64,000 nucleotides of DNA from Candidatus Enterousia sp. Its GTDB lineage: Bacteria > Pseudomonadota > Alphaproteobacteria > Rs-D84. Location of the stretch: contig JAZROX010000052.1 in assembly GCA_045648945.1 (NCBI GenBank), positions 8,417 to 72,416 of the forward strand. The letters run 5' to 3'. Position numbers and translations under genes: made by a program. Each line of letters opens with the position of its first letter. Positions within the stretch are counted from its first letter, which is position 1. This document shows positions 42 through 33,662 of the stretch, piece after piece. Under the pieces are notes generated by a model. It saw nothing but the letters and a program-made list of their open reading frames with translations, was not told where the DNA came from and ran no database searches.

Positions 42-1256
42 TTGCTTTGGCAACCGTTGGTTGCGGGCTTTACACCGCGTGCGTATGCGTATAAATTGGC
101 GCGTGGAATTGACCACCGATTGAATCGATATATTTCGTACAATGGTATGGTTGGTTTGGGTGCACGCGTAAATGGCCAGCGTTCAGGTATGCCGTCGATT
201 GCCGCCGAAATAGTCGAGGCTTTGCCCGGTTATGCGTCGATGCTCTGTGCGTTCCAGGTTGATGGTAAATTTGTTTTGGTTGCCGTTAGAAACGGTGTGA
301 TAATTTATGATTTGTTCTTTGAATCGGAAGAAAAGGCGCGTGAAAAATTTGCAGAATTGTTCGAAATTCCGGATTGGAATGCATTGTTTGCGCCGGCGTC
401 TTGGGGAATGCCACGGACCGTAGAACGTGATTTAACAGATTTAATTTCTGGGGCTTCGCATGGGGTTTTGCATTCGATAAGTCATTTTGGTGCGGGCGTT
501 GTGTCTTTGTTTCTGTTTGCATTGTTTGGATTTTTGTTTTTATATATTTTCCGTGAACCGATAAACGAGATGTTTTCACCAAAGCCCCAGGTCGCGCGTC
601 AAAACCCGGAATTGGTCGCAGAATATAAACGCCAAATAGAAGAGAAAAATAAAGAGTTAGATAAAGAATTTAATATGCGTCAACCGGCGCCGGTTGAACC
701 GTTGATTATGCCGTTTGAATCTTTACCGGATGTGGCCGAACGTGCAGATTTATGCTATCGTGCAATTGGTTTTTTAATGCAACAGGTTCCGGGTTGGAAT
801 CAGACATCGGCCGAATGTGGTGAAACACATGTGTTTGCTACGTTTAAGCGGTCTTTTGGTACATTGGATGATTTTTATGCCGTTGCCGCAGATATAATGC
901 CCGGTGTGTTTGTTCAGGAAATAAGTGATGACCAGATTTTGGTGCGTGCAAAATTGCCGGAACGCGTTACAAGGCCTTCACAAGATGTGCGTGATGCGGA
1001 CAGTGTGGTGCGTGATTTAACAAGTCGGTTCCAGGCAATAAATATGGATGCAAATATATCGGTTGTTGTTGATGCGGTTGCAAATGACACACAATCGACA
1101 GAGATATACGTGGTCGAAGTTGCGGCGGAATCCAAGATGGTTCCATCACAATTTATGTTGATATTTGACGACTTTGGCGGCGTGTATATGACCAAGGCGG
1201 CCTGGAATGTGGCCAGAAAAATGTGGAACTATGAGGTGATAATCTATGCAAAATAA
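42..1256 (+). CDS. PilO-like type IVb pilus accessory protein (5' end uncertain)
   Basis: 404-codon ORF with one central hydrophobic segment (VVSLFLFALFGFLFLYIF). It is the first gene of a run that matches the pilO-pilP-ATPase-platform order of IncI1/R64 thin-pilus operons. The frame stays open back to nt 3, so the true start may lie upstream of the window. Confidence 0.45.
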   Translation: MLWQPLVAGFTPRAYAYKLARGIDHRLNRYISYNGMVGLGARVNGQRSGMPSIAAEIVEALPGYASMLCAFQVDGKFVLVAVRNGVIIYDLFFESEEKAREKFAELFEIPDWNALFAPASWGMPRTVERDLTDLISGASHGVLHSISHFGAGVVSLFLFALFGFLFLYIFREPINEMFSPKPQVARQNPELVAEYKRQIEEKNKELDKEFNMRQPAPVEPLIMPFESLPDVAERADLCYRAIGFLMQQVPGWNQTSAECGETHVFATFKRSFGTLDDFYAVAADIMPGVFVQEISDDQILVRAKLPERVTRPSQDVRDADSVVRDLTSRFQAINMDANISVVVDAVANDTQSTEIYVVEVAAESKMVPSQFMLIFDDFGGVYMTKAAWNVARKMWNYEVIIYAK

Positions 1257-1965
1257 AATAAAAATGTTATTTGTTTCGGTATGTGTTATGTTCGGTGTAA
1301 CGGCCGGGTATTGTGCAGATACCGTGTTTGAAAATGTTGTTGATGTTATTGAAGAAGTAAATTCAAAAGACGCAACTGACGCAACGGATGCAACGGAAAA
1401 TGAAGATTTTTCGGCCGAGGCAATCGAAGATTACCAGGTCGAAGGTTCTTTGTTTCAGCAAATTACAGATTTGGAACAAGAAAAGGTTTTGATGCAATTG
1501 GAAAAAGAACGCGCGCAATTAAACCTGGACTTGGATAGATTGGCGGCGGAAAAAATAAAATTGCATATGGAAATTGATACTTTGTCCGGTCGGGCCGAGC
1601 AGCAACAACAAGAATTCGAAACAGAACGTGCGCGGTTAGAGGCCGAAGCAAAACGTTTGGAATTGGAAAAAGAAAATATGACCAAGAAAAAGGATGATGA
1701 TAAAGCCCAACCACAAAAGAAACAAGAAACTGTAAAAGAAGCACCGAAAGATGTCGAGATAGAAAAGAACTATAAATTGCTGAACGTGTTTGGCGCCGGT
1801 GCGCAATTGCAGGCGACAGTCCAAGATTTGGCCAGTGGTCAAAACAAACGCATAAGTGTTGGAAAGCAATTGGATGGTTATACCGTTAAATCTATATCTT
1901 TGGATGAAGGTGTTGTGTTTATCAAAGATGGGGAAATCCAAACATTAAATGTCGGTAATAAATAA
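1246..1965 (+). CDS. PilP-like pilus biogenesis protein (signal peptide, coiled coil, C-terminal beta domain)
   Basis: Signal peptide (MLFVSVCVMFGVTAGYCAD), an E/K/Q/L-rich coiled-coil centre, and a C-terminal YKLLNVFG...GYTVKSISLDEGVVFIKDG module. Overlaps the upstream ORF by 11 nt. Confidence 0.45.
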   Translation: MQNKIKMLFVSVCVMFGVTAGYCADTVFENVVDVIEEVNSKDATDATDATENEDFSAEAIEDYQVEGSLFQQITDLEQEKVLMQLEKERAQLNLDLDRLAAEKIKLHMEIDTLSGRAEQQQQEFETERARLEAEAKRLELEKENMTKKKDDDKAQPQKKQETVKEAPKDVEIEKNYKLLNVFGAGAQLQATVQDLASGQNKRISVGKQLDGYTVKSISLDEGVVFIKDGEIQTLNVGNK

Positions 1966-1980
1966 TATTGGGCAACCCAA

Positions 1981-3618
1981 ATGAAAGCGGCAGAAAAAAA
2001 TATATTAGGAAAAGAAAGTGTTTCACAAAAACCGTCTGTGCCGGCGGGGTTGGAACATGCAGATAATAAAGAAATTATCGAGTATTTGTTCACAGAAAAT
2101 AACCATTTGTTGACCGCGCCGGGTGGTGAATTTGAATTGCCAAAAGAAACGCAAGGCCTGTTGGCGTATTTTTCGGGTGGATGTTTGATAATTTCGCGGA
2201 CACATCGGTATGATGGGCGGGTATTGGCGTTTATGGATTTGCTGCGCAAGAAAAATCGTCCGATGCGTATACCGTTTTATTCTGATTTAGGTTTGGTTTC
2301 GGCGATATATAAATATTATGAGAACACTTTGGGTGGTGGGTCACATTCACGTGTTGATTTTAACAATCAAATGCAAAAAGACTTTGTCGATATTATCGCC
2401 AAGGCCGCCGCGCAAAAGGTTTCGGATATTCATATCGATGTTGCAGACCAAACAACAATCTATTTCCGTATAGATGGCAGTATGCAACCGGTTTTGGAAT
2501 TTAATTCCGGGTGGGGTGAATCATTTGTGCGTGCCGCGTTTGCATCGGCCGATATTTCAAATGCGAACTATGCGCAAAATGAATATCAATCGGCACAAAA
2601 AGATGGTCGCACACCATTGCGCGGAACCAAAGATTTATATTTGCCCCAAGGGGTGCTTAGTATAAGAATGCAATTTAACCCGATTGCGTTTGGGTCGCGA
2701 TATGTGGTTATGCGTTTGCTGTATGATAATCCATCCGAGAGTATAACGACCGAGCAAGAATTTGGAAAATATGAACAAACTTTGTTGCGGCGGCTGCGTT
2801 CATATCCGACGGGTTTGGTTGTTGTCGCCGGTCCAACCAGTTCAGGTAAATCAACAACACTGGTTCGGAATATGGTGTTGATGTTGAAAGAGCACAATTA
2901 TGAAATCAACCTTATTACTGTGGAAGACCCGGTTGAACAAAAAATTTTTGGTGCACATCAAATTCCGGTCGTCAATACCGCCAGTGAAGAACAGCGCGAG
3001 GCAGAATATACCGAGGCTTTGGCCGCCGCGTTGCGCAGTGACCCCGATACATTGATGGTTGGTGAAATTCGAACATTGGCCGCGGCACAGTTGACGGTCA
3101 AAGGTGCATTGTCGGGTCATAATGTTTGGACAACGTTACATGCAAATTCTGCGATGGCCGCATTGGTGCGGTTGCTGGATATGGGTGTCGAGGCGTTCAA
3201 GTTAAAAGAAGAAACAATGATGCGGGGTTTGGTGTCTATGCGTTTGTTCAAGAGGCTTTGCCCGCATTGTCGTGAGAAATTAAAAAATCATCCGGAATAT
3301 CCGGAATATGCACGCGTGATGGATACGTTTGGGGAATTGGGATTGGACCAGGTTTATGTTCGTGGGTCGGGTTGCGATGCATGTAATGGAACGGGCACAT
3401 CGGGACGTATCAAGGCCGGCGAGATTATTATAACAAACAGTGAATTTTTAAACCTGGCATTATCTGGTAATACAGACGGCGCCGTAAAGTATTGGTTGGA
3501 AGAAATGGATGGTCGCACGTTAAAGGAATCCGCGTGTTCTTTGATGTTGCAGGGTATAATTGGGGTTGATGAATTAGAACGCTGGGTCGGGTTGTTGGAC
3601 AGACCGGGGGTTTACTAA
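1981..3618 (+). CDS. GspE/PilB-family secretion ATPase (pilus assembly ATPase)
   Basis: Walker A GPTSSGKST, SDPDTLMVGEIR (Asp box/Walker B region), His box GHNVWTTLHAN, and a tetracysteine cluster CPHC...CDACNG. Confidence 0.9.
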   Translation: MKAAEKNILGKESVSQKPSVPAGLEHADNKEIIEYLFTENNHLLTAPGGEFELPKETQGLLAYFSGGCLIISRTHRYDGRVLAFMDLLRKKNRPMRIPFYSDLGLVSAIYKYYENTLGGGSHSRVDFNNQMQKDFVDIIAKAAAQKVSDIHIDVADQTTIYFRIDGSMQPVLEFNSGWGESFVRAAFASADISNANYAQNEYQSAQKDGRTPLRGTKDLYLPQGVLSIRMQFNPIAFGSRYVVMRLLYDNPSESITTEQEFGKYEQTLLRRLRSYPTGLVVVAGPTSSGKSTTLVRNMVLMLKEHNYEINLITVEDPVEQKIFGAHQIPVVNTASEEQREAEYTEALAAALRSDPDTLMVGEIRTLAAAQLTVKGALSGHNVWTTLHANSAMAALVRLLDMGVEAFKLKEETMMRGLVSMRLFKRLCPHCREKLKNHPEYPEYARVMDTFGELGLDQVYVRGSGCDACNGTGTSGRIKAGEIIITNSEFLNLALSGNTDGAVKYWLEEMDGRTLKESACSLMLQGIIGVDELERWVGLLDRPGVY

Positions 3619-3619
3619 G

Positions 3620-4690
3620 ATGAACAGGTTGGAAATATTTTATGCCAAAATGGTTTGTCGTTTCAGTAATGACAAACGTATTTCTATTTGGCGTAAATTG
3701 GTATCACTGTTGAAAAATGATTTTACGTTGGTGAATGCGTTGAACCGGTTGCAGATGATAGAATCGCACGGGGGCGCAAAACCGAACGAGCCTTTTGCAA
3801 TATGTATGCGGGAATGGGAAAAAAACCTGGAACGTGGGATGAGTTTTTCCGAGGCCACACGTGGTTGGGTCCCGGCCGAAGAAACATTGCTGCTTACATC
3901 CGGGAATATGTCCAGTTTGATTGTTGCGTTGGAAAACGTTGGGCGGATAATTGTTGCGAATAAAAGAATAGGGGGCGCGGTATTCAGTGCGATTGCATAT
4001 CCGACATTATTGTTGGTTTTGGTGTTTGCGATTATAATTATGGTTGGTTTGTATTTGGTGCCGCCTTTGTCCCAGATTGCCGGCGATAATATGGTTTGGT
4101 CGGGTGCGGCGGCGTCATTGATTTGGCTATCGAATTTGGCCGGAAATTATTGGAAAGAGTTTTCAATTGCATTTGTTGTTTTTGGAATTTTTGTATGGTG
4201 GTCTTTGCCGCGCCTATCGGGGCGGGTGCGCGCATTCTTTGATAATTTGCCACCATGGAATATATATAAAATTCGTTTGTCGGTAAGTTGGATGATGTCA
4301 TTGTCCGCCATGGTGGCGGCCGGGGTCACGATTCCCGATGCAATGCGAATGTTGGCGGATAATTCTAATCGGTATTTGCGGCGTATTTTGGAAGAAACTT
4401 TGCATTATATCGCGAATGGTGACAACCTTGGGGTGGCGTTACAGAACACGGGTATGGATTTTCCAAATAATGAATTGATTGGCGATTTGACAATTTATGC
4501 CGATATGAACGATTTTGATGAAAATTTGACCCAGATTTCAAATGACTATTTGGAAAATTCGGTCAAGAAAATAGAATCTTTGGCGGAAACATTAAACACG
4601 GTTGGTATAATTTTAATATCGGCGGTTATTGCATGGATTGTTATGGGAACCTTCCAGATGCAGGACCAGATAACGGCGTTTTTAAGTTAG
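3620..4690 (+). CDS. GspF/PilC-family inner-membrane platform protein
   Basis: 356 aa, starting 2 nt after the ATPase stop. Hydrophobic segments alternate with helical cytoplasmic repeats, as in GspF/PilC/R64 PilR. Confidence 0.8.
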   Translation: MNRLEIFYAKMVCRFSNDKRISIWRKLVSLLKNDFTLVNALNRLQMIESHGGAKPNEPFAICMREWEKNLERGMSFSEATRGWVPAEETLLLTSGNMSSLIVALENVGRIIVANKRIGGAVFSAIAYPTLLLVLVFAIIIMVGLYLVPPLSQIAGDNMVWSGAAASLIWLSNLAGNYWKEFSIAFVVFGIFVWWSLPRLSGRVRAFFDNLPPWNIYKIRLSVSWMMSLSAMVAAGVTIPDAMRMLADNSNRYLRRILEETLHYIANGDNLGVALQNTGMDFPNNELIGDLTIYADMNDFDENLTQISNDYLENSVKKIESLAETLNTVGIILISAVIAWIVMGTFQMQDQITAFLS

Positions 4691-4772: not shown

Positions 4773-5813
4773 ATGGCAAGACTAAAACAGTATTTTAGTG
4801 AATATAAAAAACAAAGCGAACCAGATAAACGTGCCCGTGCGGAAAACTGGGGGGTGGCCATTGGGTTGCAACAGGTTGATAATTTAACCCCATCTAGATA
4901 TTTAATTGGTATCGCAAGAGATAACATAGAAGGCAAAATATCGGTCTATGATGCAGAACGTGAAATAAATCGTTATTATCATGAAAATGTTGCATCCACC
5001 AAGCAAGAACAAGATGAGCAAGAAGCGGACAAAGTATCTGTGCGTATTGCCAAATTGCTAAGTGAAAAGACATTCAAGTTCAGTCCCGCCGAATATAAAT
5101 CGATTCATGGGGCTTTGTTTAAAGGAATATTGGATAAAAAAATAGCAGGTAAGTTTCGCACATATAATATAACCAAGAAAGAAGAAATCTTGAACAATGA
5201 CACCGTTATTTATGGTCGGGCGGCCAGTATTGCCGAAACGTTGGAATATGATTTTGCACAAGAGAAAAAGTTCGATTATAAAAATTTAACAAAACGTCAA
5301 CGCATAGAACATATTGAAAAGTTTATGTCTGGGATATGGCAAATTCACCCGTTTGGTGAGGGTAACACTCGCGCTACGGTTGTGTTTGTTATCAAATATC
5401 TGGAAACAATGGGGATGCATACAAATAATGATATGTTTGAAAAATACGCGAAATATTTCAGGAATGCGCTGGTTCGTGCCAATTATCAAAACCTGGAAAA
5501 GAATATTCCGTATACAATGGAATACTTGAACAAGTTTTTTGGTAATTTATTGTTGGGTGAAAAAAATCGCCTTGATAATCGTGAAATGCAGATAAAGAAA
5601 ACTGAATCAAAAACTACCCAGAAAACTACCCAGAAAACCGCCCAGAAAATTTTGGGTGTGTTGGCGAAAAATCCAAACGCAACACGTGCCGATTTGGCGG
5701 TGGCAACAGGCCTTAGTACGGACGGTGTAAAATGGAATTTGAATAAACTGAAACGGTCCGAAAAAATACGCCGCATCGGCCCGGATCGTGGCGGTCATTG
5801 GGAAGTGTTATAA
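4773..5813 (+). CDS. Fic/DOC-family protein with C-terminal winged-helix-like tail
   Basis: Fic core variant HPFGEGNTRATV (canonical HxFx[DE]GNGRxxR). In-frame 3 x 12-nt repeat at nt 5613-5648 encoding TTQK-TTQK-TAQK. C-terminal GLSTDGVKWNLNKLKRSEKIRRIG. Confidence 0.8.
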   Translation: MARLKQYFSEYKKQSEPDKRARAENWGVAIGLQQVDNLTPSRYLIGIARDNIEGKISVYDAEREINRYYHENVASTKQEQDEQEADKVSVRIAKLLSEKTFKFSPAEYKSIHGALFKGILDKKIAGKFRTYNITKKEEILNNDTVIYGRAASIAETLEYDFAQEKKFDYKNLTKRQRIEHIEKFMSGIWQIHPFGEGNTRATVVFVIKYLETMGMHTNNDMFEKYAKYFRNALVRANYQNLEKNIPYTMEYLNKFFGNLLLGEKNRLDNREMQIKKTESKTTQKTTQKTAQKILGVLAKNPNATRADLAVATGLSTDGVKWNLNKLKRSEKIRRIGPDRGGHWEVL

Positions 5814-5869
5814 TTTTAAAATAAAATCTGGTCAGATGGCTTGGTTTTTACCGGTGTTAGTTTTTTTGT

Positions 5870-5898
5870 TTGATTTTTAGTTGAATTTGTTGTATATT
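5870..5898 (+). promoter_or_regulatory. sigma70-type promoter of repeat module A
   Basis: TTGATT (5870-5875), 17-nt spacer, TATATT (5893-5898). The hexamers and spacing are identical in copy B (11521-11549). Confidence 0.55.
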
Positions 5899-5904
5899 TC
5901 TAGT

Positions 5905-6090
5905 GTCGACAGGTGTTCTGTTGATGGATGTTAAAGAAATCCGAATTACACTGGTGTCCGTGGGGACAAAAAACACCTCCAACGCAGGGTTGGAGGGAGA
6001 CGAATATGTTGAATAAGTCTCACCTATTTCTAGTGTAATAGTTCTTTAACCTCCAACCGTTATGATTTTTGTCAGACGGTTTTTATTTTT
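5905..6090 (+). ncRNA. Candidate structured 5' leader / cis-regulatory RNA, copy A (five hairpins plus intrinsic terminator)
   Basis: Hairpins:
- P1: 5926-5942.
- P2: 5956-5967.
- P3: 5976-5996 (CCTCCAAC/GGTTGGAGG).
- P4: 5997-6021.
- P5: 6024-6041.
A competing CCTCCAACC lies at 6050-6058. The terminator is AACCGT..ACGGTT plus a T-run at 6055-6090. The stems are supported by compensatory differences from copy B. Confidence 0.55.
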
Positions 6091-6106
6091 AACAAAGGAA
6101 AGAAAA

Positions 6107-6250
6107 ATGAATAATAAACCAGAAAAAGAAGAATTATTGATAGGGGCGGTTTTGGATTTTTATAGAAAGAATCCGGGTTACAGAATGTCCCAGAAAGAAT
6201 TTATGGGTTTGATATGCGCCCTGTGTCAACAGGTGATGAGTGATATTTAG
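6107..6250 (+). CDS. 47-aa conserved small protein, copy A (unknown function)
   Basis: ATG 6107 preceded by AAAGGAAAG. Differs from copy B (11755-11898) at 5 of 144 nt, four synonymous and one Ile/Val. The longer track ORF (6062) would start inside the terminator hairpin. Confidence 0.6.
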   Translation: MNNKPEKEELLIGAVLDFYRKNPGYRMSQKEFMGLICALCQQVMSDI

Positions 6251-6355
6251 TGGTTAGTGTTTAGTGTTAGTGGATAGTAGAATCTGGCATAATTTCATAA
6301 TTACGAAATAATTCCAGACACCACTAGCCACTAACCACTTACACTAACCACTCTA
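6248..6355. repeat. Palindromic intergenic element built from TAGTGGT-type heptamer arrays
   Basis: The plus-sense array TAGTGGTTAGTGTTTAGTGTTAGTGGATAGTAG starts on the stop codon of the small ORF. Its inverted counterpart (6318-6355) starts on the stop codon of the convergent gene. The centre carries a TCTGGnATAA...TTCCAGA box. Confidence 0.85.
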
Positions 6356-6925
6356 TACCATAAACGGCAGGTTTTCCAATGTGCCTTCGGCGACACGCAG
6401 GTTCACGTCAATCATCATGAATACGCAATCGGGACTGGCCGTGGCCAAATCCGGATGAAAAATGTGATTGGACAGCAAGTGGCTGGTATTCACCGATATC
6501 TTGGTAATCAAATGGTCGTCGTCCAACAGGGTATAAATCGGCCCGGCGTCACGCGGAACGTTTTGGCCAATTTCATGTTCGTTTTGCGGGCAACGCAGAC
6601 CATCGAATAATGTTTTAATCCGATTGTCGATATCCGAACGCGGAACACCGATAATTTCTGGGTGCAGCATTTGGATGTCCAATTCTGCAATCAATTTCAA
6701 TTTTGGGGTAATAATTGGGTTCCAATCTATGCCGCCAATGTGCCGGGTTATAACCGGGCTTTTGGCCGGGTTTGGTGCCATATACTGGGTCAATTTATCC
6801 CACGGTTGATGTTCGACCAATTTCTTTAATTGTGGGTGAAATTGCATGCGGATGTCCGAAATATGCTGGGCCCGTTTCTTGGGATTTATTAAAATTTCAC
6901 CAAAATACAATAACTTGAATTTCAT
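6353..6925 (-). CDS. RusA-like endodeoxyribonuclease-fold protein (enlarged, 190 aa)
   Basis: SDIDNRIKTLFDGL followed by LLDDDHLI lines up with E. coli RusA RDLDNLQKAAFDAL ... WLDDAQV (catalytic D70, D72, K76, D91). Roughly 70 extra residues are inserted relative to the 120-aa RusA. Confidence 0.45.
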   Translation of the reverse strand: MKFKLLYFGEILINPKKRAQHISDIRMQFHPQLKKLVEHQPWDKLTQYMAPNPAKSPVITRHIGGIDWNPIITPKLKLIAELDIQMLHPEIIGVPRSDIDNRIKTLFDGLRCPQNEHEIGQNVPRDAGPIYTLLDDDHLITKISVNTSHLLSNHIFHPDLATASPDCVFMMIDVNLRVAEGTLENLPFMV

Positions 6926-6956
6926 ATCTTTTTTCCTTTATTTTTTGCCTTTTTCT

Positions 6957-6985
6957 TTGACAATTATACCATAATTTGCTATGTT
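6957..6985 (+). promoter_or_regulatory. Putative gyrB promoter
   Basis: TTGACA (6957-6962), 17 nt, TATGTT (6980-6985). GAAAGGA Shine-Dalgarno at 7001-7007 and ATG at 7015. Confidence 0.45.
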
Positions 6986-6990
6986 TTTGA

Positions 6991-9414
<2,424 letters not shown>

Positions 9415-9427
9415 TGAAGGAATCGTG

Positions 9428-10099
9428 ATGTCTGAATTTGAAGTGGCAAGGGCGAAAGTATTGGCAAAATCGCGTGTAACTGTGCATGCGGTTGATGAAG
9501 ATAATGATGTTGTTGATAATACGCAATTGCCGCGTATGCCAGGTGGAAGTAAAGTTATTATTGAACACAGAATTTATGAAGAATTAAAATATTTGGAACA
9601 GTTGACCGGTGCAAAAAAAGCAGAGTGTTCTTTTTTGTTATTTGGTTATTCCAAAGGACAAACAGTTGTTTTTAATGATATTATCTCTGCGGCGCCAAGT
9701 GGAAGTTCTGTGGTAGCTTCATTTAATAAACGGCAAGCAGAAAAACTTACTGATTTTTGTAAAAATGCAAGGCGTGATGAAAATAAAATTGTCGCGCATG
9801 GGCATACTCACCCGCATTTGTCATATGACCAAAGTGGTTGGTATTTAAATTTTTCTTATGGTGATATAATGGGGTATATAAATATGCGTGAACAAAGTCT
9901 TGTAAAAGATCGTGTGGATTTGTGTGGGTGTTTGTTGACTGGTGGTAATTTTAATTTTGTTTTTTGTGACGGCAAAGATGTTTATCGGTTTGATAAGGTT
10001 TTTGTTCAAGATAAAAACGGTAATATAGTGAAACAGTTGCCGTGTTTTGGACACGATGTCACAAATATACCATATGTGCAGAATAATGGACGGAAATAA
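9428..10099 (+). CDS. JAB/MPN-like (JAMM-type) metalloprotease-domain protein
   Basis: Candidate JAMM elements: Glu (AECSFLLFG), HGHTHPH, and SYGD. ATG 9428 is preceded by GAAGGA and lies 14 nt after the gyrB stop. Confidence 0.5.
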   Translation: MSEFEVARAKVLAKSRVTVHAVDEDNDVVDNTQLPRMPGGSKVIIEHRIYEELKYLEQLTGAKKAECSFLLFGYSKGQTVVFNDIISAAPSGSSVVASFNKRQAEKLTDFCKNARRDENKIVAHGHTHPHLSYDQSGWYLNFSYGDIMGYINMREQSLVKDRVDLCGCLLTGGNFNFVFCDGKDVYRFDKVFVQDKNGNIVKQLPCFGHDVTNIPYVQNNGRK

Positions 10100-10735
10100 A
10101 TGTTTGACGCCAAATGGTTCTTTGATTTGGAAAAGAAAATACGCGAAATGGGCGCCGATAGCGACGCCCAATCTTTTGATGAAATTCGTGATAATTTGGC
10201 ACATCCGCGCACGTTTTCGCCCGATGAATTTGCAACTATGTGTGCATATGTGATTCTGGCCGGGGGATTTTCACAAAAAACCGCAAAGCGTATTCATAAA
10301 AATATTATGGATTATATTTATAAAAATGGTGCGGATTTTGATGCGATTTTCCAAATGTTTCATAATAAAAATAAAGTATCCGCGATTTGTAAAATTTGGG
10401 AAGGGCGGGTCGCCCTGTGCCACGATTTTTATAATTGTGTGACGGATGAATCCCGTTTGGTATACCTGGCGCGGTTGCCACATATTGGTAAAATTACCGC
10501 GAATCATTTGGCGCGAAATTTGGGTGTTGATGTGGTGAAATATGATGTTTGGATACGACGGCTTGGTGCCCTATACGCCGGAATCCGCCATACAGACGAA
10601 TTGACACCGGAATTGCGGGCGGCGTGTGATGATATGTTTTCATATTTGGTGCGTGAAACCGGTTTGCCACGCGGATATATTGATGTGGTGTTATGGAAAG
10701 CGTGTCAGTTAAAAATAATAAGTGTTAATGGCTAG
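10100..10735 (+). CDS. HhH-GPD superfamily DNA glycosylase-like protein
   Basis: LPHIGKITANHLARNLGVDVVKYDVWIRR aligns with EndoIII [30 protein letters not shown] (helix-hairpin-helix plus catalytic Asp). The ATG abuts the stop of the JAB gene (TAAATG). Confidence 0.55.
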   Translation: MFDAKWFFDLEKKIREMGADSDAQSFDEIRDNLAHPRTFSPDEFATMCAYVILAGGFSQKTAKRIHKNIMDYIYKNGADFDAIFQMFHNKNKVSAICKIWEGRVALCHDFYNCVTDESRLVYLARLPHIGKITANHLARNLGVDVVKYDVWIRRLGALYAGIRHTDELTPELRAACDDMFSYLVRETGLPRGYIDVVLWKACQLKIISVNG

Positions 10736-10813
10736 TGTTTTCTGGAATAACTATACAATGATAAAATTATTCCAGAGTTTACTAACCACTTACACTATCC
10801 ACTAACCACTTAA
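10733..10813. repeat. Palindromic heptamer-family element (short left arm, long right arm)
   Basis: Begins on the TAG stop at 10733. Perfect 10-bp hairpin TCTGGAATAA (10741-10750) / TTATTCCAGA (10767-10776). The right arm is ACTAACCACTTACACTATCCACTAACCACTTA. Confidence 0.8.
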
Positions 10814-10831
10814 GTGAACGGAGTGAACGAT

Positions 10832-11497
10832 ATGGATGTGAAAATTGAAGAATCTTGGAAACGCGTGTTGGCGGATGAATTTGATAAAGATTATTTTATC
10901 AAACTGACCGATTTTGTGCGCGGGGAATATATGGCGGGCAAAAAAATTTATCCAGCGGCCAAGAATATTTTTAATGCGTTCAACCTGTGTCCTTTTGATT
11001 CTGTGCGTGTTGTGATTATTGGACAAGACCCGTATCATGAACCAGGCCAGGCGATGGGCCTCTGTTTTTCTGTGCCGGATGGTGTAACACCGCCGCCGTC
11101 GCTGGTTAATATCTATAAAGAAATTGAATCGGACCTGGGGCGGCCTAGTCCAACGCACGGTGATTTGACATCTTGGGCCGGGCAGGGTGTATTGTTGTTA
11201 AATTCAACCTTGACCGTTGCGGCACATTTGGCGGCATCGCACGCGGGGCGTGGATGGGAACAATTTACCGATGCGGTGATTCGGCAACTGGCCATGCGAC
11301 GCAATGGGTTGGTTTATATACTCTGGGGGGCGTACGCGCAAAGAAAGGCGGAAATTGTGGACGCGTCAAAAAATCTGATTTTAAAAAGTGTTCATCCATC
11401 GCCACTGTCTGCGCATAGGGGTTTTTTTGGAAACCATCATTTTAGTCGGGCTAATGAATACATTGTTGCGCATGGTGGAAAGCCGATAGATTGGTGA
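10832..11497 (+). CDS. ung: Uracil-DNA glycosylase, family 1
   Basis: GQDPYH and HPSPLS motifs. ATG 10832 with GGAG 9 nt upstream; the track start 10814 is a GTG inside the repeat element. Confidence 0.93.
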   Translation: MDVKIEESWKRVLADEFDKDYFIKLTDFVRGEYMAGKKIYPAAKNIFNAFNLCPFDSVRVVIIGQDPYHEPGQAMGLCFSVPDGVTPPPSLVNIYKEIESDLGRPSPTHGDLTSWAGQGVLLLNSTLTVAAHLAASHAGRGWEQFTDAVIRQLAMRRNGLVYILWGAYAQRKAEIVDASKNLILKSVHPSPLSAHRGFFGNHHFSRANEYIVAHGGKPIDW

Positions 11498-11520
11498 TTG
11501 GTGGTTAGTGTTTTTTCTGT

Positions 11521-11549
11521 TTGATTTTAAATTGAATTTGTTGTATATT
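11521..11549 (+). promoter_or_regulatory. sigma70-type promoter of repeat module B
   Basis: TTGATT, 17 nt, TATATT, as in copy A. Confidence 0.55.
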
Positions 11550-11555
11550 TCTGGT

Positions 11556-11738
11556 GTCAACAGGTGTTCTGTTTGGTGGGGCTTAAAGACCTCTTTTATT
11601 TCGATGTCCGCGGGGACACAAAAAACCTCCAACCTTGGGTTGGAGGGAGCGAATATGTTGAATAAGCTCGGCTATTTTCGAAATAATAGTTCTTTAACCT
11701 CCAACCGTTATGATTTTTATCAAACGGTTTTTATTTTT
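11556..11738 (+). ncRNA. Candidate structured 5' leader / cis-regulatory RNA, copy B
   Basis: Same hairpin series as copy A:
- P1: GGGG/CCTC, 11578-11593.
- P2: 11606-11617.
- P3: 11626-11646.
- P4: GAGC/GCTC, 11647-11669.
- P5: 11672-11689.
The competing CCTCCAACC lies at 11698-11706 and the terminator at 11703-11738. Confidence 0.55.
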
Positions 11739-11754
11739 AATAAAGGAAAGAAAA

Positions 11755-11898
11755 ATGAATAATAAACCGGAAAAAGAAGAATTATTGATAGGGGCGGTTT
11801 TGGATTTTTATAGAAAGAATCCGGGTTACAGAATGTCCCAGAAAGAATTTATGGGTTTAATATGCGCCCTGTGTCAGCAGGTGATGAGCGATGTTTAG
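11755..11898 (+). CDS. 47-aa conserved small protein, copy B
   Basis: Same length, frame and Shine-Dalgarno sequence as copy A. The only amino-acid difference is the C-terminal Ile to Val. Confidence 0.6.
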   Translation: MNNKPEKEELLIGAVLDFYRKNPGYRMSQKEFMGLICALCQQVMSDV

Positions 11899-12022
11899 TG
11901 GGTAGTGGTTAGTGGGTTCTGGAATAAATTCGTAATTTTAAACTTTATTTTTTTTATCGAATCTACCCCACCGGCTATGCCGGTCCCCCCCTTCAGGGAA
12001 CCTGAAGGGGAATAACCACTTA
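11896..12022. repeat. Heptamer-family element between small ORF B and the convergent PagL-like gene
   Basis: TAGTGGGTAGTGGTTAGTGGGTTCTGGAATAA starts on the ORF stop. A 10-bp hairpin CCCCTTCAGG/CCTGAAGGGG lies at 11988-12010. The right end GGAATAACCACTTA ends on the stop of the minus-strand gene. Confidence 0.7.
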
Positions 12023-12586
12023 AAAATTATACGTCACGCCCATACCGTAAAATGCGTAAGAATAATTTTCGGGTGCGGTATTCCCGTTCGAAAAATGATG
12101 CATAAATATTTCCATACCCCATTTGTCATTGATGTGCCAACCGGCGATGACTTTGAACTGAAACAATAATTTTGCACCCAGGCGTTCGTTCTGTTGTGCC
12201 TGCATACCGACGCCGGCGCCGGCCGCGACATAAAAGTTCTTGTATTCCGAAAGGCGGACGTCGCCCGACAGTATAATCATAGGAATCGTATAGTCGCGCC
12301 AATGCCAACCGTATTTATTACCAAAACCAAATGTCTGATTAATGTTTAACGATTGGCGTGCCGGCAGGCCGAAAAAGGTCGTCGGTTGAGAATACTGTAA
12401 ACTAAACAGATTAAATGGGACGAATTGGGTCGGTGGCGGCAGGATGAAACCGCTGTTTATACCCTGGCCGACATTAAAGGCCAATTGATTTTTGTATGTG
12501 CCTGTAAAGGTATTTCGGCCATCCGCCGCAAACGCGGACGCGGCGGCGAAAACCAAAGCGAACAAAGCGGCGATAAATCTCCTCAT
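12020..12586 (-). CDS. PagL-like outer-membrane acyloxyacyl hydrolase (lipid A deacylase family)
   Basis: Signal peptide MRRFIAALFALVFAAASAFA, alternating beta-barrel pattern, HHFSNGN active-site-like motif, and terminal aromatic residues (TYNF). Confidence 0.6.
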   Translation of the reverse strand: MRRFIAALFALVFAAASAFAADGRNTFTGTYKNQLAFNVGQGINSGFILPPPTQFVPFNLFSLQYSQPTTFFGLPARQSLNINQTFGFGNKYGWHWRDYTIPMIILSGDVRLSEYKNFYVAAGAGVGMQAQQNERLGAKLLFQFKVIAGWHINDKWGMEIFMHHFSNGNTAPENYSYAFYGMGVTYNF

Positions 12587-12723
12587 TGAAATGATATTAT
12601 ACACTATTTTGGGCAACTATTCAAATTGTATTATTTTGGGTGGCAAAATTGTGTGGATTTGGCGGATAACATAAATTCTTGCATTTGGAAAAATGTTTGT
12701 TATAATCGGTTCGATTTTCATAT

Positions 12724-12798
12724 GGCGGCGTAGCTCAGTGGTAGAGCAGAGGAATCATAATCCTTTGGTCAGGGGTCCGAATCCCTTCGCCGCTACCA
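12724..12798 (+). tRNA. tRNA with CAT anticodon (Met; a lysidine-type Ile2 cannot be excluded)
   Basis: Cloverleaf by hand:
- Acceptor stem GGCGGCG/CGCCGCT.
- D arm GCTC..GAGC.
- Anticodon stem GAGGA/TCCTT with loop ATCATAA.
- T arm AGGGG-TCCGAAT-CCCTT.
- Encoded CCA. Confidence 0.9.
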
Positions 12799-31850: not shown

Positions 31851-33620
31851 ATGTTATCACTTAAATCAAAATACAGAACGCATACTTGTGGGGAATTGAC
31901 CGCGAAAAATGTGGGCGAAACCGTCACATTGTCGGGTTGGGTTCATCGTAAACGCGATCATGGGTCATTGTTGTTTATTGACTTGCGCGATAATTATGGA
32001 ATTACCCAGGTTGTTTTGGACGGCGGAAATGACGATTTGGAACGCGTGCGGCCGGAATCTGTGTTGCAGATAACCGGAAAGGTTGTCGCGCGTGATGCGT
32101 CACAAATAAATGAAAAAATCCCAACCGGGGAAATCGAGATTCAGGTTGAATCTTGGAATGTTTTGACATCGGCCGATGTTTTGCCTTTCCAGGTTTTTGG
32201 TGATGACGATACAAGTGAAGAATTGCGTTATAAATATCGTTTCTTGGATTTACGGCGCGAAAAATTGCACCACAATATTTTGATGCGTAACAAAATGGTA
32301 AAATGGTTGCGCGATAAAATGTGGGATTTGGGTTTTTCGGAATTTCAAACACCGTTGCTGACGGCTGATTCGCCCGAAGGTGCACGTTGTTTCCTTGTTC
32401 CTTCGCGTTTGAATCATGGTAAATTCTATGCGTTGCCCCAGGCACCCCAGATGTTTAAACAATTGTTACAGGTGTCGGGTTTTGACCGTTATTTCCAAAT
32501 TGCGCCTTGTTTCCGCGATGAAGATTTGCGTTCGGACAGATTGTTGGAATTTTATCAATTGGATGTTGAAATGTCCTTTGTTGATTTACCAGACATTCAA
32601 AAGGTTGGCGAGGTTGTAATTCCAGAATTAATCAAGACTTTTGCACCGGATGCCAATGTTTATCCGGAAATTCCGCATATTTCGTTTGATGATGCAATGT
32701 TGAAATATGGGTCCGATAAACCGGATTTGCGTAACCCGATTTTGATTTCTGATGTGACGGATATTTTCCGCGGGTCGGATTTTGGAATCTTTGCAAATGC
32801 GGTTGAAAATGGCGCCGTTGTTCGCGCGATTCCGGCACCAAAAAGTTCGGATAAACCGCGGTCTTGGTTTGATAAACTTACCGAATATGCAACCAAAGAA
32901 TTGGGGCTTGGTGGATTGGCCTATATTGTTTTTGCCGATGAACCAAAAGGTCCGGTCGCGAAAAAATTGGATGCGGACCGCATTGCCAAGTTGCATGAAA
33001 TCGCCGGTGACAATTCATCGTTGTTCTTTGTATGCGATATGGAAGAGCCAGCGTCCAAAGCCGCGGGTAAATTGCGTAATAAACTTGGGGCGGATTTGGG
33101 ATTGATTAACCCACGTGATTTTGCGATTTGCTGGGTTGATAATTTTCCGTTCTTTGAACCCGATGAAGAACGGGGCGGGGCACCAAAGTTCACGCATAAC
33201 CCGTTTTCATACCCACTTGCGACATTGGAAGAATTGTCTACGCGTGACCCATTCACGATTAAGGCGGCACAGTTCGATATGGTTATAAATGGTATTGAAA
33301 TGTGCAGTGGGGGACTTCGTAACTATAATCCAGATGTGATGAAAAAATGCTTTGATATTGCCGGATATCCGGAAGAAAAAGTTGAACAAAACTTCTCGGC
33401 GTTATATACAGCATTTAAATATGGCGCGCCACCACACGGTGGGTTCGGGTTTGGTATTGACCGTTTGATTTCCGAAATATTGGGAACTGGTGAAAGTTTG
33501 CGCGAAACGGTTGCGTTCCCGGCAAACCAACGTGGGCAAGATTTGCTTATGGGATCACCGAACGAGGTTACCGAACAACAACTGCGCGATGTGCACATCC
33601 AAGTTCGGAAGAAGAACTAG
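31851..33620 (+). CDS. aspS: Aspartate--tRNA ligase, bacterial type
   Basis: Class II motif 2 CFRDEDLRSDRLLEFYQLDVEMSF and motif 3 GGFGFGIDRL. 589 aa, with a GAD-type insertion. Confidence 0.95.
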   Translation: MLSLKSKYRTHTCGELTAKNVGETVTLSGWVHRKRDHGSLLFIDLRDNYGITQVVLDGGNDDLERVRPESVLQITGKVVARDASQINEKIPTGEIEIQVESWNVLTSADVLPFQVFGDDDTSEELRYKYRFLDLRREKLHHNILMRNKMVKWLRDKMWDLGFSEFQTPLLTADSPEGARCFLVPSRLNHGKFYALPQAPQMFKQLLQVSGFDRYFQIAPCFRDEDLRSDRLLEFYQLDVEMSFVDLPDIQKVGEVVIPELIKTFAPDANVYPEIPHISFDDAMLKYGSDKPDLRNPILISDVTDIFRGSDFGIFANAVENGAVVRAIPAPKSSDKPRSWFDKLTEYATKELGLGGLAYIVFADEPKGPVAKKLDADRIAKLHEIAGDNSSLFFVCDMEEPASKAAGKLRNKLGADLGLINPRDFAICWVDNFPFFEPDEERGGAPKFTHNPFSYPLATLEELSTRDPFTIKAAQFDMVINGIEMCSGGLRNYNPDVMKKCFDIAGYPEEKVEQNFSALYTAFKYGAPPHGGFGFGIDRLISEILGTGESLRETVAFPANQRGQDLLMGSPNEVTEQQLRDVHIQVRKKN

Positions 33621-33662
33621 TGGGTAGTGGTTAGTGTTAGTGGCTAGTGATAGTGGTTAGTG
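33618..33662 (+). repeat. Longest TAGTGGT-type heptamer array (7 units), starting on the aspS stop codon
   Basis: TAGTGGG TAGTGGT TAGTGT TAGTGGC TAGTGA TAGTGGT TAGTG. TAG occurs at offsets 0, 7, 14, 20, 27, 33 and 40, which covers all three frames. Confidence 0.9.

Follow-up and report, generated by a model that had tools for sequence, protein, structure and literature searches.

The described systems closest to the RNA considered in this study include the pyr attenuators of Bacillus subtilis (PyrR) and the c-di-GMP-I (GEMM-I) riboswitches. The former occur as repeated copies in one system and follow a three-layer logic of anti-antiterminator, antiterminator and terminator, and the latter recur many times in a genome, upstream of genes for pili, surface proteins and regulators. 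The RNA in question is the leader of a gene for a protein of 47 amino acids (aa), found in a stretch of 64,000 nucleotides (nt) from Candidatus Enterousia sp. (GenBank assembly GCA_045648945.1, contig JAZROX010000052.1, positions 8,417 to 72,416 of the forward strand), which I will call the window and to which coordinates refer unless another locus is named. Leader and gene occur there twice, as copy A (5850-6262) and copy B (11499-11920). I put at roughly 0.6 the probability of the following reading: copy B is the paralogous product of a duplication, and the duplicated transcription unit comprises a sigma-70 promoter, a cis-acting leader RNA and the small protein gene; the leader is a riboswitch-like terminator/antiterminator attenuator with an additional anti-antiterminator layer, driving the gene of a small two-helix protein; and it belongs to a large family of bistable attenuator leaders, apparently not described before, in the lineage Rs-D84.

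The likeness to the pyr attenuators is that an upstream strand (d, acting with a, b and c, all defined below) would sequester the 5' strand of the antiterminator, so that the terminator forms. Unlike them, the leader has no PyrR binding-loop consensus, is associated with no pyrimidine genes and matches nothing in Rfam; its anti-antiterminator would take up the whole 5' half, mirroring the 3' domain, and its predicted OFF default requires no factor. With the c-di-GMP-I riboswitches it shares a conserved and covarying leader with its own terminator/antiterminator platform, occurrence in multiple copies and an association with regulators and with secreted or surface proteins, but it matches no Rfam riboswitch model, and it differs from a simple aptamer joined to a platform in that both of its folds are extensive and covarying. 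Attenuators of the trp/his type have the same 1:2, 2:3, 3:4 topology and a terminator with a U tract, whereas the leader lacks a conserved leader peptide. The CcsR or 'cuckoo' RNAs, a set of sibling small RNAs whose anti-Shine-Dalgarno motifs are C-rich, are, like the leader, alphaproteobacterial, multicopy and sometimes tandem, with CCUCC-type motifs and a link to a small protein gene. In CcsR, however, the motif lies in hairpin loops and the RNA downstream of a DUF1127 gene, whereas the motifs of the leader, which has no Rfam match, lie in helices and the RNA upstream of the gene.

The bacteria assigned to Rs-D84 / Candidatus Enterousia are uncultured inhabitants of gut and rumen with reduced genomes of ~0.7-1.6 Mb and are thought to depend on a partner (PMC12306168).

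The Duplicated Unit

An earlier note on this DNA, made from the letters alone, had described copy B, between ung and a PagL-like gene, as a repeat of copy A, and the repeat finder, a pairwise alignment and the Pfam assignments of the neighbours agree with it. Both copies consist, in this order, of a promoter (TTGATT-17-TATATT), a leader of ~190 nt, an intrinsic terminator, a ribosome-binding site and an open reading frame (ORF) of 47 aa. The repeat finder returned collinear blocks at an A-to-B spacing of ~5.65 kb: one of 62 nt over the promoter (92% identity), one of 45 nt (87%; promoter and 5' leader overall, 87-92%) and one of 248 nt over the 3' leader and ORF (93%), which the pairwise alignment joins into a single unit. 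That the two copies might be an artefact of assembly was checked and is ruled out, because their flanks differ and many substitutions separate them. A covariance model of the leader (R1, built from 112 leaders, see below) counts exactly two copies of the module in the window, with 119.8 and 118.2 bits; no further copy was found there, the next best score being 21.5 bits on the antisense strand of copy B.

The promoter of copy B (11521..11549, plus strand), of sigma-70 type with 17 nt between TTGATT and TATATT, was found by a site scan, and its boxes align across the leader family; transcription probably starts near 11556. A promoter scan gives the matching site of copy A at 5870-5898 (plus strand), followed by its leader at ~5905-6090 and its ORF at 6107-6250 (both plus strand; 47 aa, last residue Ile). 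Within the leader of copy A, hairpin P3 lies at 5976-5996, strand d2 at 6050-6058 and the terminator with its U tract at 6055-6090. The ORF of copy B (11755-11898, plus strand; 47 aa, MNNKPEKEELLIGAVLDFYRKNPGYRMSQKEFMGLICALCQQVMSDV) is preceded by the ribosome-binding site AAAGGAAAG at 11741-11749.

Two Probable Alternative Folds of the Leader

The elements of the leader run, from 5' to 3', P0, a, b, a', c, P2, d, d', P4, e, c', e', b', d2 and terminator, and their positions are given here for copy B, all on the plus strand. RNAfold predicts one multibranched fold common to both copies (z-scores of -4.3 and -5.4 against shuffles), in which UUAAAGA (b) pairs with UCUUUAA (b') ~110 nt downstream. 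At the 5' terminus stands the hairpin P0 (11556..11576), called by RNAfold, with a stem that covaries in the 112 leaders. Hairpin PA (11578..11593; fold and covariation) is made of a (GGGG) and a' (CCUC) around loop b (CUUAAAGA), and each of its parts has an alternative partner, strand a in the CCUC of d2 and strand b in b' (UUCUUUAA, 11690..11697; covariation). Strand c (UAUUUCGA, 11597..11604) pairs in the extended fold with c' (11678-11685). There follow P2 (UGUCC-GCGG-GGACA, 11605..11618), which is missing from one subclass of the family, P3 (11626..11646), in which d (CCUCCAACC) and d' (GGUUGGAGG) are joined by the loop UUG, and P4 (11647..11669), a GAGC/GCUC stem with a 15-nt loop (GAAUAUGUUGAAUAA), each of the three indicated by both fold and covariation. 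In P5 (11672..11689) the strands e (CUAUU) and e' (AAUAG), which covary, enclose c' (UUCGAAAU) as their loop. Strand d2 (CCUCCAACC, 11698..11706) may pair either with d', making the antiterminator, or through its CCUC with a, and with its AACC it supplies the foot of the intrinsic terminator (AACCGUU-A-UGAU-UUUU-AUCA-AACGGUU, then UUUAUUUUU; 11703..11738). The terminator was called by RNAfold; a simple consensus scan missed it because its stem is bulged.

The earlier note had seen in the leader an RNA under structural selection with a terminator/antiterminator switch, which covariation supports; its fold, though, is incomplete. Its P2, P3 and P4 stand, as do the differences it listed in the loops of P2 (GUGG vs GCGG) and P3, both seen in the alignment. 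Alignment and fold also bear out the compensation of GGAU/AUCC by GGGG/CCUC around UUAAAGA, the P4 stem in which both strands share an indel (GAGAC/GUCUC vs GAGC/GCUC) while the 15-nt loop stays invariant, and the identity between copies of the switch sequences CCUCCAAC, GGUUGGAGG and CCUCCAACC. The predicted fold is not a row of independent hairpins, and the long-range helices b:b' and c:c' had been missed. What had been taken for a free change in the loop of P5 (UCUAGUGU vs UUCGAAAU) is compensated 80 nt upstream (ACACUGG vs UUUCGA): the helix c:c' reads AUUACACUGG/CUAGUGUAAU in copy A and UAUUUCGA/UCGAAAUA in copy B, wholly different sequences that are both fully complementary, and this exchange is the strongest compensatory signal inside the window. 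The terminator, thought to be invariant, has two G/A differences (UUUUUGUCAGACGG vs UUUUUAUCAAACGG), with pairing kept both times (G-U vs A-U).

Covariation was assessed in a MAFFT alignment of the 112 leaders. In the extended nested fold (P0, a:d2, b:b', c:c', P2, P3 and P4), 81.6% of the cells are paired, as against 66.9% in shuffles, and the covariation score is 0.337, as against 0.135 in shuffled alignments (none of 500 reaches it) and 0.06-0.11 in slid controls. The pairs of b:b' interchange freely among C-G, A-U, G-C and U-A. Strands c and c' were tested free of the alignment because their lengths vary: the duplex energy averages -7.0 kcal/mol for cognate and -1.8 kcal/mol for non-cognate partners (Mann-Whitney p = 1.6e-28), and the cognate partner is within the best 10% in 94% of the leaders.

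Alongside these long-range helices the local stems PA and P5 are conserved as well, PA as GGGG/CCUC, GGAU/AUCC or CGAGA/UCUCG, and P5 as CUAU/AUAG, CAAU/AUUG, CUGU/ACAG, CUAC/GUAG, GCAU/GUGC or GAUA/UAUC. Strand b is the loop of PA and c' the loop of P5, and the long-range pairing leaves 0-1 nucleotides of them over. Because the two loops are consumed by b:b' and c:c', the local and long-range pairings should be unable to coexist; a pseudoknot that keeps PA and P5 together with b:b' and c:c' was dismissed on the steric grounds implied by 0-1 linker nucleotides. The RNA would then have two mutually exclusive folds, both kept by selection, and it possesses the conserved structured domain, supported by covariation, that is expected of the sensor of a riboswitch.

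As a separate observation, the minus strand of P3 (11626-11646 in copy B, 5976-5996 in copy A) together with the complement of the conserved A run scores as an intrinsic terminator (CCTCCAACC..GGTTGGAGG followed by TTTTTTGTGT), at which antisense transcription entering the leader could be stopped.

Antiterminator, Terminator and Predicted Default State

The helix d':d2, which the model of the alignment excluded, is 99% paired, and five of its nine pairs show double-sided changes. Strand d2 is always the perfect 9-nt complement of d', and d a weaker complement of 7-8 nt. Both d' and d2 are nearly invariant in the set selected by the search pattern, which therefore carries little covariation information at these positions. 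Copies found only by the covariance model show concerted changes of d', d2 and d (GGCAGGAGG, seen twice, with CCUCCUGCC and CCUUCUGC), and further variants of d' are GGUUGGAGU (three times) with d2 ACUCCAACC, GGUUGGAGA with UCUCCAACC, GAUUGGAG with CUCCAAUC, and UGUUGGAGG with ...CCAACA. The terminator stem has its foot in the last four bases of d2 (AACC), so that a d':d2 helix excludes the terminator. The resulting topology is 1:2, 2:3, 3:4, in which the 3' domain is mirrored by the 5' half (a, b, c, d). The double-sided changes show an alternative helix that overlaps the terminator and has evidently been maintained by selection.

In both copies a hairpin with a U tract is predicted directly upstream of the ORF, where an attenuator has its intrinsic terminator; over 106 leaders, the median distance from d2 to the start codon is 49 nt. 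The terminator folds of the two window copies have energies of -69.3 and -61.4 kcal/mol, and the best folds in which the antiterminator is enforced -50.0 and -49.5 kcal/mol. When the 112 leaders are cut at d2, the extended fold is favoured by a median of 10.8 kcal/mol, and the antiterminator appears in the minimum-energy fold of only three. The predicted fold with enforced antiterminator contains PA, P2, P4 and P5 and is thus the local-hairpin state. The pairings of both folds are supported by covariation, the computed energetics favour OFF, and because the terminator fold is the more stable, OFF should be the default state.

In the OFF state, a:d2 (the CCUC part), b:b', c:c' and d:d' would make one extended hairpin with P2 and P4 as side branches, leaving the AACC of d2 free to seed the terminator, and transcription would halt before the ORF. 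Strand d would serve as the anti-antiterminator strand, and the whole 5' half (a, b, c, d) as the anti-antiterminator. In the ON state, a/b and c' would be locked in the local hairpins PA and P5, and d' (GGUUGGAGG) would form with d2 (CCUCCAACC) a perfect antiterminator of 9 bp (base pairs), joined to P4 and P5 in a three-way junction. This would take the foot from the terminator, and RNA polymerase would continue into the ORF. Read-through would require that the d'-P4-P5-d2 junction be favoured or the extended hairpin delayed, and the trigger may be a small ligand or an RNA-binding protein that recognizes the conserved d'-P4-P5-d2 domain, or a kinetic signal. I infer that the leader acts in cis on transcription, that an effector exists and that the ON fold forms in vivo.

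Distribution of the Leader and the Genes It Precedes

The conserved core (GTTGGAGG, 3-8 nt, GAATANNTTGAATAA) was used as a search pattern against a collection of species-representative genomes, in which at least 118 stretches matched, with four more in viral contigs. The gut and rumen alphaproteobacterial loci fetched for comparison (L001 and so on) yielded 146 matches to R1 at an expectation value (E) of 0.01 or below, 112 in the first 100 loci and 34 in the remaining ones. The covariance model did not pick up two of the pattern matches, those in L017 (Flammeovirgaceae) and L043 (Omnitrophota), which lie outside the Alphaproteobacteria and are attributed to chance. The matches in genomes come nearly all from metagenome-assembled Alphaproteobacteria of gut or rumen (Candidatus Enterousia, 'Rickettsiales bacterium' or unclassified), and one Enterousia assembly, JAZQCF01, has at least six leader loci. 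The four viral leaders are in IMG/VR contigs classed as viral (L121-L124); that of L124 is divergent (43 bits), and those of L121 and L123 precede a family of 316-aa signal-peptide proteins also found at chromosomal loci.

The architecture common to the family begins with -35 and -10 boxes, P0, GGGG (a), loop b, CCYC (a'), a variable c and an optional P2, continues with CUCCAAC (d), GGUUGGAGG (d'), P4 with the loop GAAUAUAUUGAAUAA, CUAU (e), c' and AUAG (e'), and ends with b', CCUCCAACC (d2), the terminator, a ribosome-binding site and a start codon. In the P4 loop the ends (GAAUA...AAUAA) are conserved and the middle accepts substitutions and even inserted hairpins, a pattern that would suit a recognition site. 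Two leaders (L049 180-353 and L010 7133-7296) have such an extra hairpin in mid loop with both ends kept, and in this respect the 'loop' seems to behave like an internal loop or junction motif.

Searched against Rfam 15, neither window copy is overlapped by any match at the gathering thresholds, the region 5700-12100 gives only chance-level matches at E <= 10 (at most 18.7 bits), and in eight related loci no match overlaps the leaders. Nor was a description of the leader found in the searchable literature on its conserved sequences, Enterousia or Rs-D84, or in the first 200 of the 408 supplementary files of a catalogue of candidate structured RNAs from human microbiomes. The leader is a member of a large RNA family, specific to Rs-D84 / Candidatus Enterousia, that has apparently not been described before.

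The earlier note treated the leader as part of a module with the 47-aa gene; across many loci, the family sits before unrelated genes. A ribosome-binding site and start codon follow within 70 nt of d2 in 96 of 112 evaluable leaders (86%; median 49 nt). The products of these genes are mutually unrelated, and about half are small proteins of less than 100 aa. The largest groups are of the XRE helix-turn-helix (HTH) type, with 23 matches to HTH_31, 16 to HTH_19 and 14 to HTH_3 among 99 proteins scanned, and with similarity groups of 29 and 10 members. Another 34 products are longer, with N-termini resembling signal peptides, and many of these are cysteine-rich; to the remainder belong an ABC (ATP-binding cassette) exporter, a trypsin-like protease and a Bro-N protein. 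With five members, the family of the 47-aa protein is a small group among them.

Two deviant arrangements of the leader were seen. In some loci (L111 6203-6368, L112 344-511 and L042 2806-3120) a 'half' leader starts at d' right after the promoter and lacks the 5' anti-antiterminator half; such leaders would, on the switch model, read through constitutively. In others, leaders with their own terminators stand in tandem with no ORF between them: three at L098 5590-6155, where a gene for a 78-aa HTH-like protein follows, five at L115 2282-4153 and three at L065 2362-3025. The tandem leaders could be stacked attenuators or independent small RNAs.

Several observations tell against a bistable attenuator. 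The search pattern fixed d' and the P4 loop, so that their near invariance is in part a matter of ascertainment, with only 12 of the 112 model matches of the first set lacking the exact pattern. The antiterminator fold, being far less stable than the OFF fold, may form rarely. What the genes after the leader encode is varied (small HTH proteins, signal-peptide proteins, an ABC exporter) and offers no metabolic clue of the kind typical of riboswitches. Finally, the tandem arrays and the strong default terminator suit a different explanation, namely that the segment from promoter to terminator is a stand-alone, trans-acting small RNA (sRNA) of ~190 nt with many siblings, its CCUCC motifs, which resemble an anti-Shine-Dalgarno sequence, targeting messenger RNAs and the ORF expressed by incidental read-through. 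As would be expected of such an sRNA, the leader has its own promoter and a terminator fold that is efficient by default, and it occurs in several copies per genome; in L111 and L112 a second promoter follows a full copy. I nevertheless consider it unlikely. The same-strand ribosome-binding site and start codon within 70 nt, in 86% of the copies, leave no room for a second promoter; the CCUCC motifs lie within helices rather than loops; the conserved P4 loop finds no complementary target in the window; and the covarying helix d':d2 overlaps the foot of the terminator, where it would be of no use to a constitutive sRNA.

To my knowledge, almost nothing is known of regulation in Rs-D84 / Candidatus Enterousia. 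The presence of one conserved leader before both signal-peptide proteins and small HTH regulators, at least six times in a single genome, would point to a common signal controlling what the cell presents at its surface. I would go further only tentatively, at a little short of even odds, and propose that the leader founds an undescribed class, a bistable 'mirror-hairpin' attenuator that senses a ligand or protein and commands a genome-wide regulon in the reduced-genome, partner-dependent Rs-D84, made up of small DNA-binding proteins and of proteins that are secreted or at the surface, as a master switch for surface and interaction genes. That both conformations of a switch are visible in covariation makes it an unusually clear natural example, and for that reason a good candidate in the search for ligands or proteins and as a compact control part that is OFF by default.

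The 47-aa Protein

The claim that the ORFs of copies A and B differ by four synonymous changes and one Ile/Val replacement is reproduced by a Nei-Gojobori count (four synonymous differences and one non-synonymous), and their products differ at the final residue only (Ile in A, Val in B). The purifying selection deduced from that pattern agrees with the ratio of non-synonymous to synonymous substitution rates (dN/dS), which is 0.03-0.05 against a diverged copy in L002 and 0.11-0.26 against a 57-aa homologue in L072, the latter for those comparisons in which dS could be calculated. All homologues found are intact. The comparisons support the view that purifying selection acts on the small ORF and that it is a translated gene.

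Among 5.8 billion proteins, the 47-aa protein falls into three clusters at 90% identity only, two of them from short metagenomic contigs that also bear the leader. An exhaustive profile search of 1.84 billion representatives found five clusters only, of 42-58 aa, with a common core (E)ELLIxAILDFYxKxxGYxMSQxEFxGLIxxLxQQxM. AlphaFold predicts two helices, at residues 7-21 and 29-45, with a mean pLDDT (predicted local distance difference test) of 80.5. The peptide is hydrophilic, its helices amphipathic, and it has no transmembrane segment or hydrophobic span; it has no Pfam match and no fold match with E below 5 among PDB structures. As part of the reading preferred here, the product is probably a real one, a cytoplasmic orphan protein predicted to fold as two helices. 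It is of some interest as a conserved orphan small protein linked to a gene cluster resembling those of type IV pili.

Genomic Sites and Possible Movement of the Unit

The cluster just mentioned occupies 42-4690 of the window and consists of a 404-aa ORF with no family match, a PilP-like gene (1246-1965), a gene for a GspE/PilB-like ATPase (T2SSE; 1981-3618) and one for a GspF/PilC/ComGB-like platform protein (T2SSF; 3620-4690). A Fic/DOC and winged-helix gene (Fic/HTH; 4773-5813) separates it from copy A. Copy B lies between a gene of the UDG-family glycosylases (10814-11497) and a PagL-family gene on the minus strand (12020-12616).

The window is syntenic with several of the leader loci, at 75-83% nucleotide identity. 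In L001, L002, L125 and L127 the small-protein gene directly follows the T2SSE/T2SSF pair, with no counterpart of the gene at 4773-5813, which is probably an insertion relative to these relatives. In L127 (2897-3129) the gene has a plain promoter of its own and no leader, and the homologue of window 6353-6925 comes next in convergent orientation; the small-protein gene can thus do without the leader. The product there and in L128 is the most divergent member of the family (42 aa), again after T2SSF and leaderless. In L072 (Enterousia) no unit stands between ung and the PagL homologue, and the unit is at another site. The adjacency to T2SSE/T2SSF and the neighbours in L127 indicate that the site of copy A is ancestral and copy B a derived duplicate.

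The window contains TAGTGGN heptamer arrays at five places, of which two (10721-10810 and 33618-33662) have no unit nearby. The arrays start where the preceding gene has its stop codon, and several are large palindromes with a hairpin at the centre; since the period is seven, stop codons fall in all three frames of either strand. In appearance the arrays are an intergenic insulator or terminator used throughout the genome. At the upstream edge of copy B, the heptamer units GATTGGT GATTGGT GGTTAGTG (11489..11510, plus strand) overlap the stop codon of the UDG-family gene, and an array TAGTGGG TAGTGGT TAGTGGG (11896..11917, plus strand) begins at the stop codon of its ORF. After copy A there is a palindromic element (6247..6352) composed of a TTAGTGG array, a central hairpin and a CCACTAA array.

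It had been proposed that both copies begin with the same exact heptamer unit and end in an array, so that the ~420-bp unit might be mobile. The first part is incorrect, since only copy B has GGTTAGTG, copy A having GGTGTTAGT instead. Of the second, the sites of the unit do differ among genomes; arrays, however, also occur without it, and hallmarks of mobile elements are lacking. A stronger version would hold that the unit is chiefly a mobile or recombining DNA cassette, conserved through recent spread by way of the heptamer arrays and not through function. It would draw on the variety of sites (after T2SSF in L001, L002 and L125, after ung in copy B, elsewhere in L072), on the full palindromic element that flanks the L072 unit on each side (660-775 and 1186-1300), and on L001 1615-1650. 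There, downstream of the ORF, a repeat of the unit's first 24 nt (GGTTAGTGTTTTTTCTGTTTGATT, with the -35 box) is joined to a different -10 box ahead of the next gene, whose product starts MAKVLITGANGQLG, an arrangement that looks like a recombination scar. Yet no transposase, integrase, terminal inverted repeats or target-site duplication was seen around either copy, the leader alone precedes more than 100 unrelated genes, and the substitutions between A and B are compensatory in helices and synonymous in the ORF, which bespeaks selection rather than recency. A mere cassette is accordingly improbable, more so than the sRNA. The unit nonetheless appears to have shifted, or been swapped, from one intergenic slot to another, recombination between heptamer arrays being a possible route.

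The part of the window that is syntenic with the site of the unit in L072 (33680-34160) has a heptamer array followed by sequence unrelated to the unit; seen there are a hairpin rich in GC, TTGAAT...GATATAAT, which resembles a promoter, and ATGGTTGATAAAAAG... as a start-codon context.

Leader Peptides, Other Antitermination Systems and Toxins

The topology of d, d', d2 and terminator is exactly the 1:2, 2:3, 3:4 of trp-type attenuation, in which the position of a ribosome on a short translated leader ORF makes the choice, and in the window a GGAGG is followed 9 nt later by an AUG within the P4 loop. That AUG, however, reads AUA, ACA, AAA, AUU or AUC in most members of the family, indels give copies A and B a different frame and stop, most members have no ORF overlapping strand d, and the variation of c' tracks base pairing and not codons. 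With neither start nor frame of a short ORF conserved across the family, a leader peptide is very improbable, and the attenuator with its mirrored 5' half remains the preferred reading. A T-box leader (specifier loop and T-box sequence, RF00230) was likewise rejected, as there is no Rfam match and the variable strands b and c pair in cis. The target of ANTAR-type antitermination is a tandem of hairpins, each with a conserved hexaloop (A at position 1, G at position 4), and the terminator is overlapped by the second of the two; here the P4 loop has 15 nt, and the P5 loops are of 6-12 nt and variable in sequence, so this candidate too was set aside.

A locus like those of type I toxin-antitoxin systems, with a small toxic peptide, a structured 5' untranslated region and an antisense RNA, would fit a small ORF with a long structured leader at a duplicated locus and the terminator read on the minus strand of P3 and its A run, but it is the least probable of all, given a hydrophilic, amphipathic peptide with no transmembrane segment and no Pfam match (defence-system libraries were not searched), a leader that also precedes unrelated genes and a family member that has no leader.

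Past the PagL-like gene, ~0.8 kb downstream of copy B, the window contains a transfer RNA gene (12724-12795) with the anticodon loop ..UCAUAA.. (CAU).

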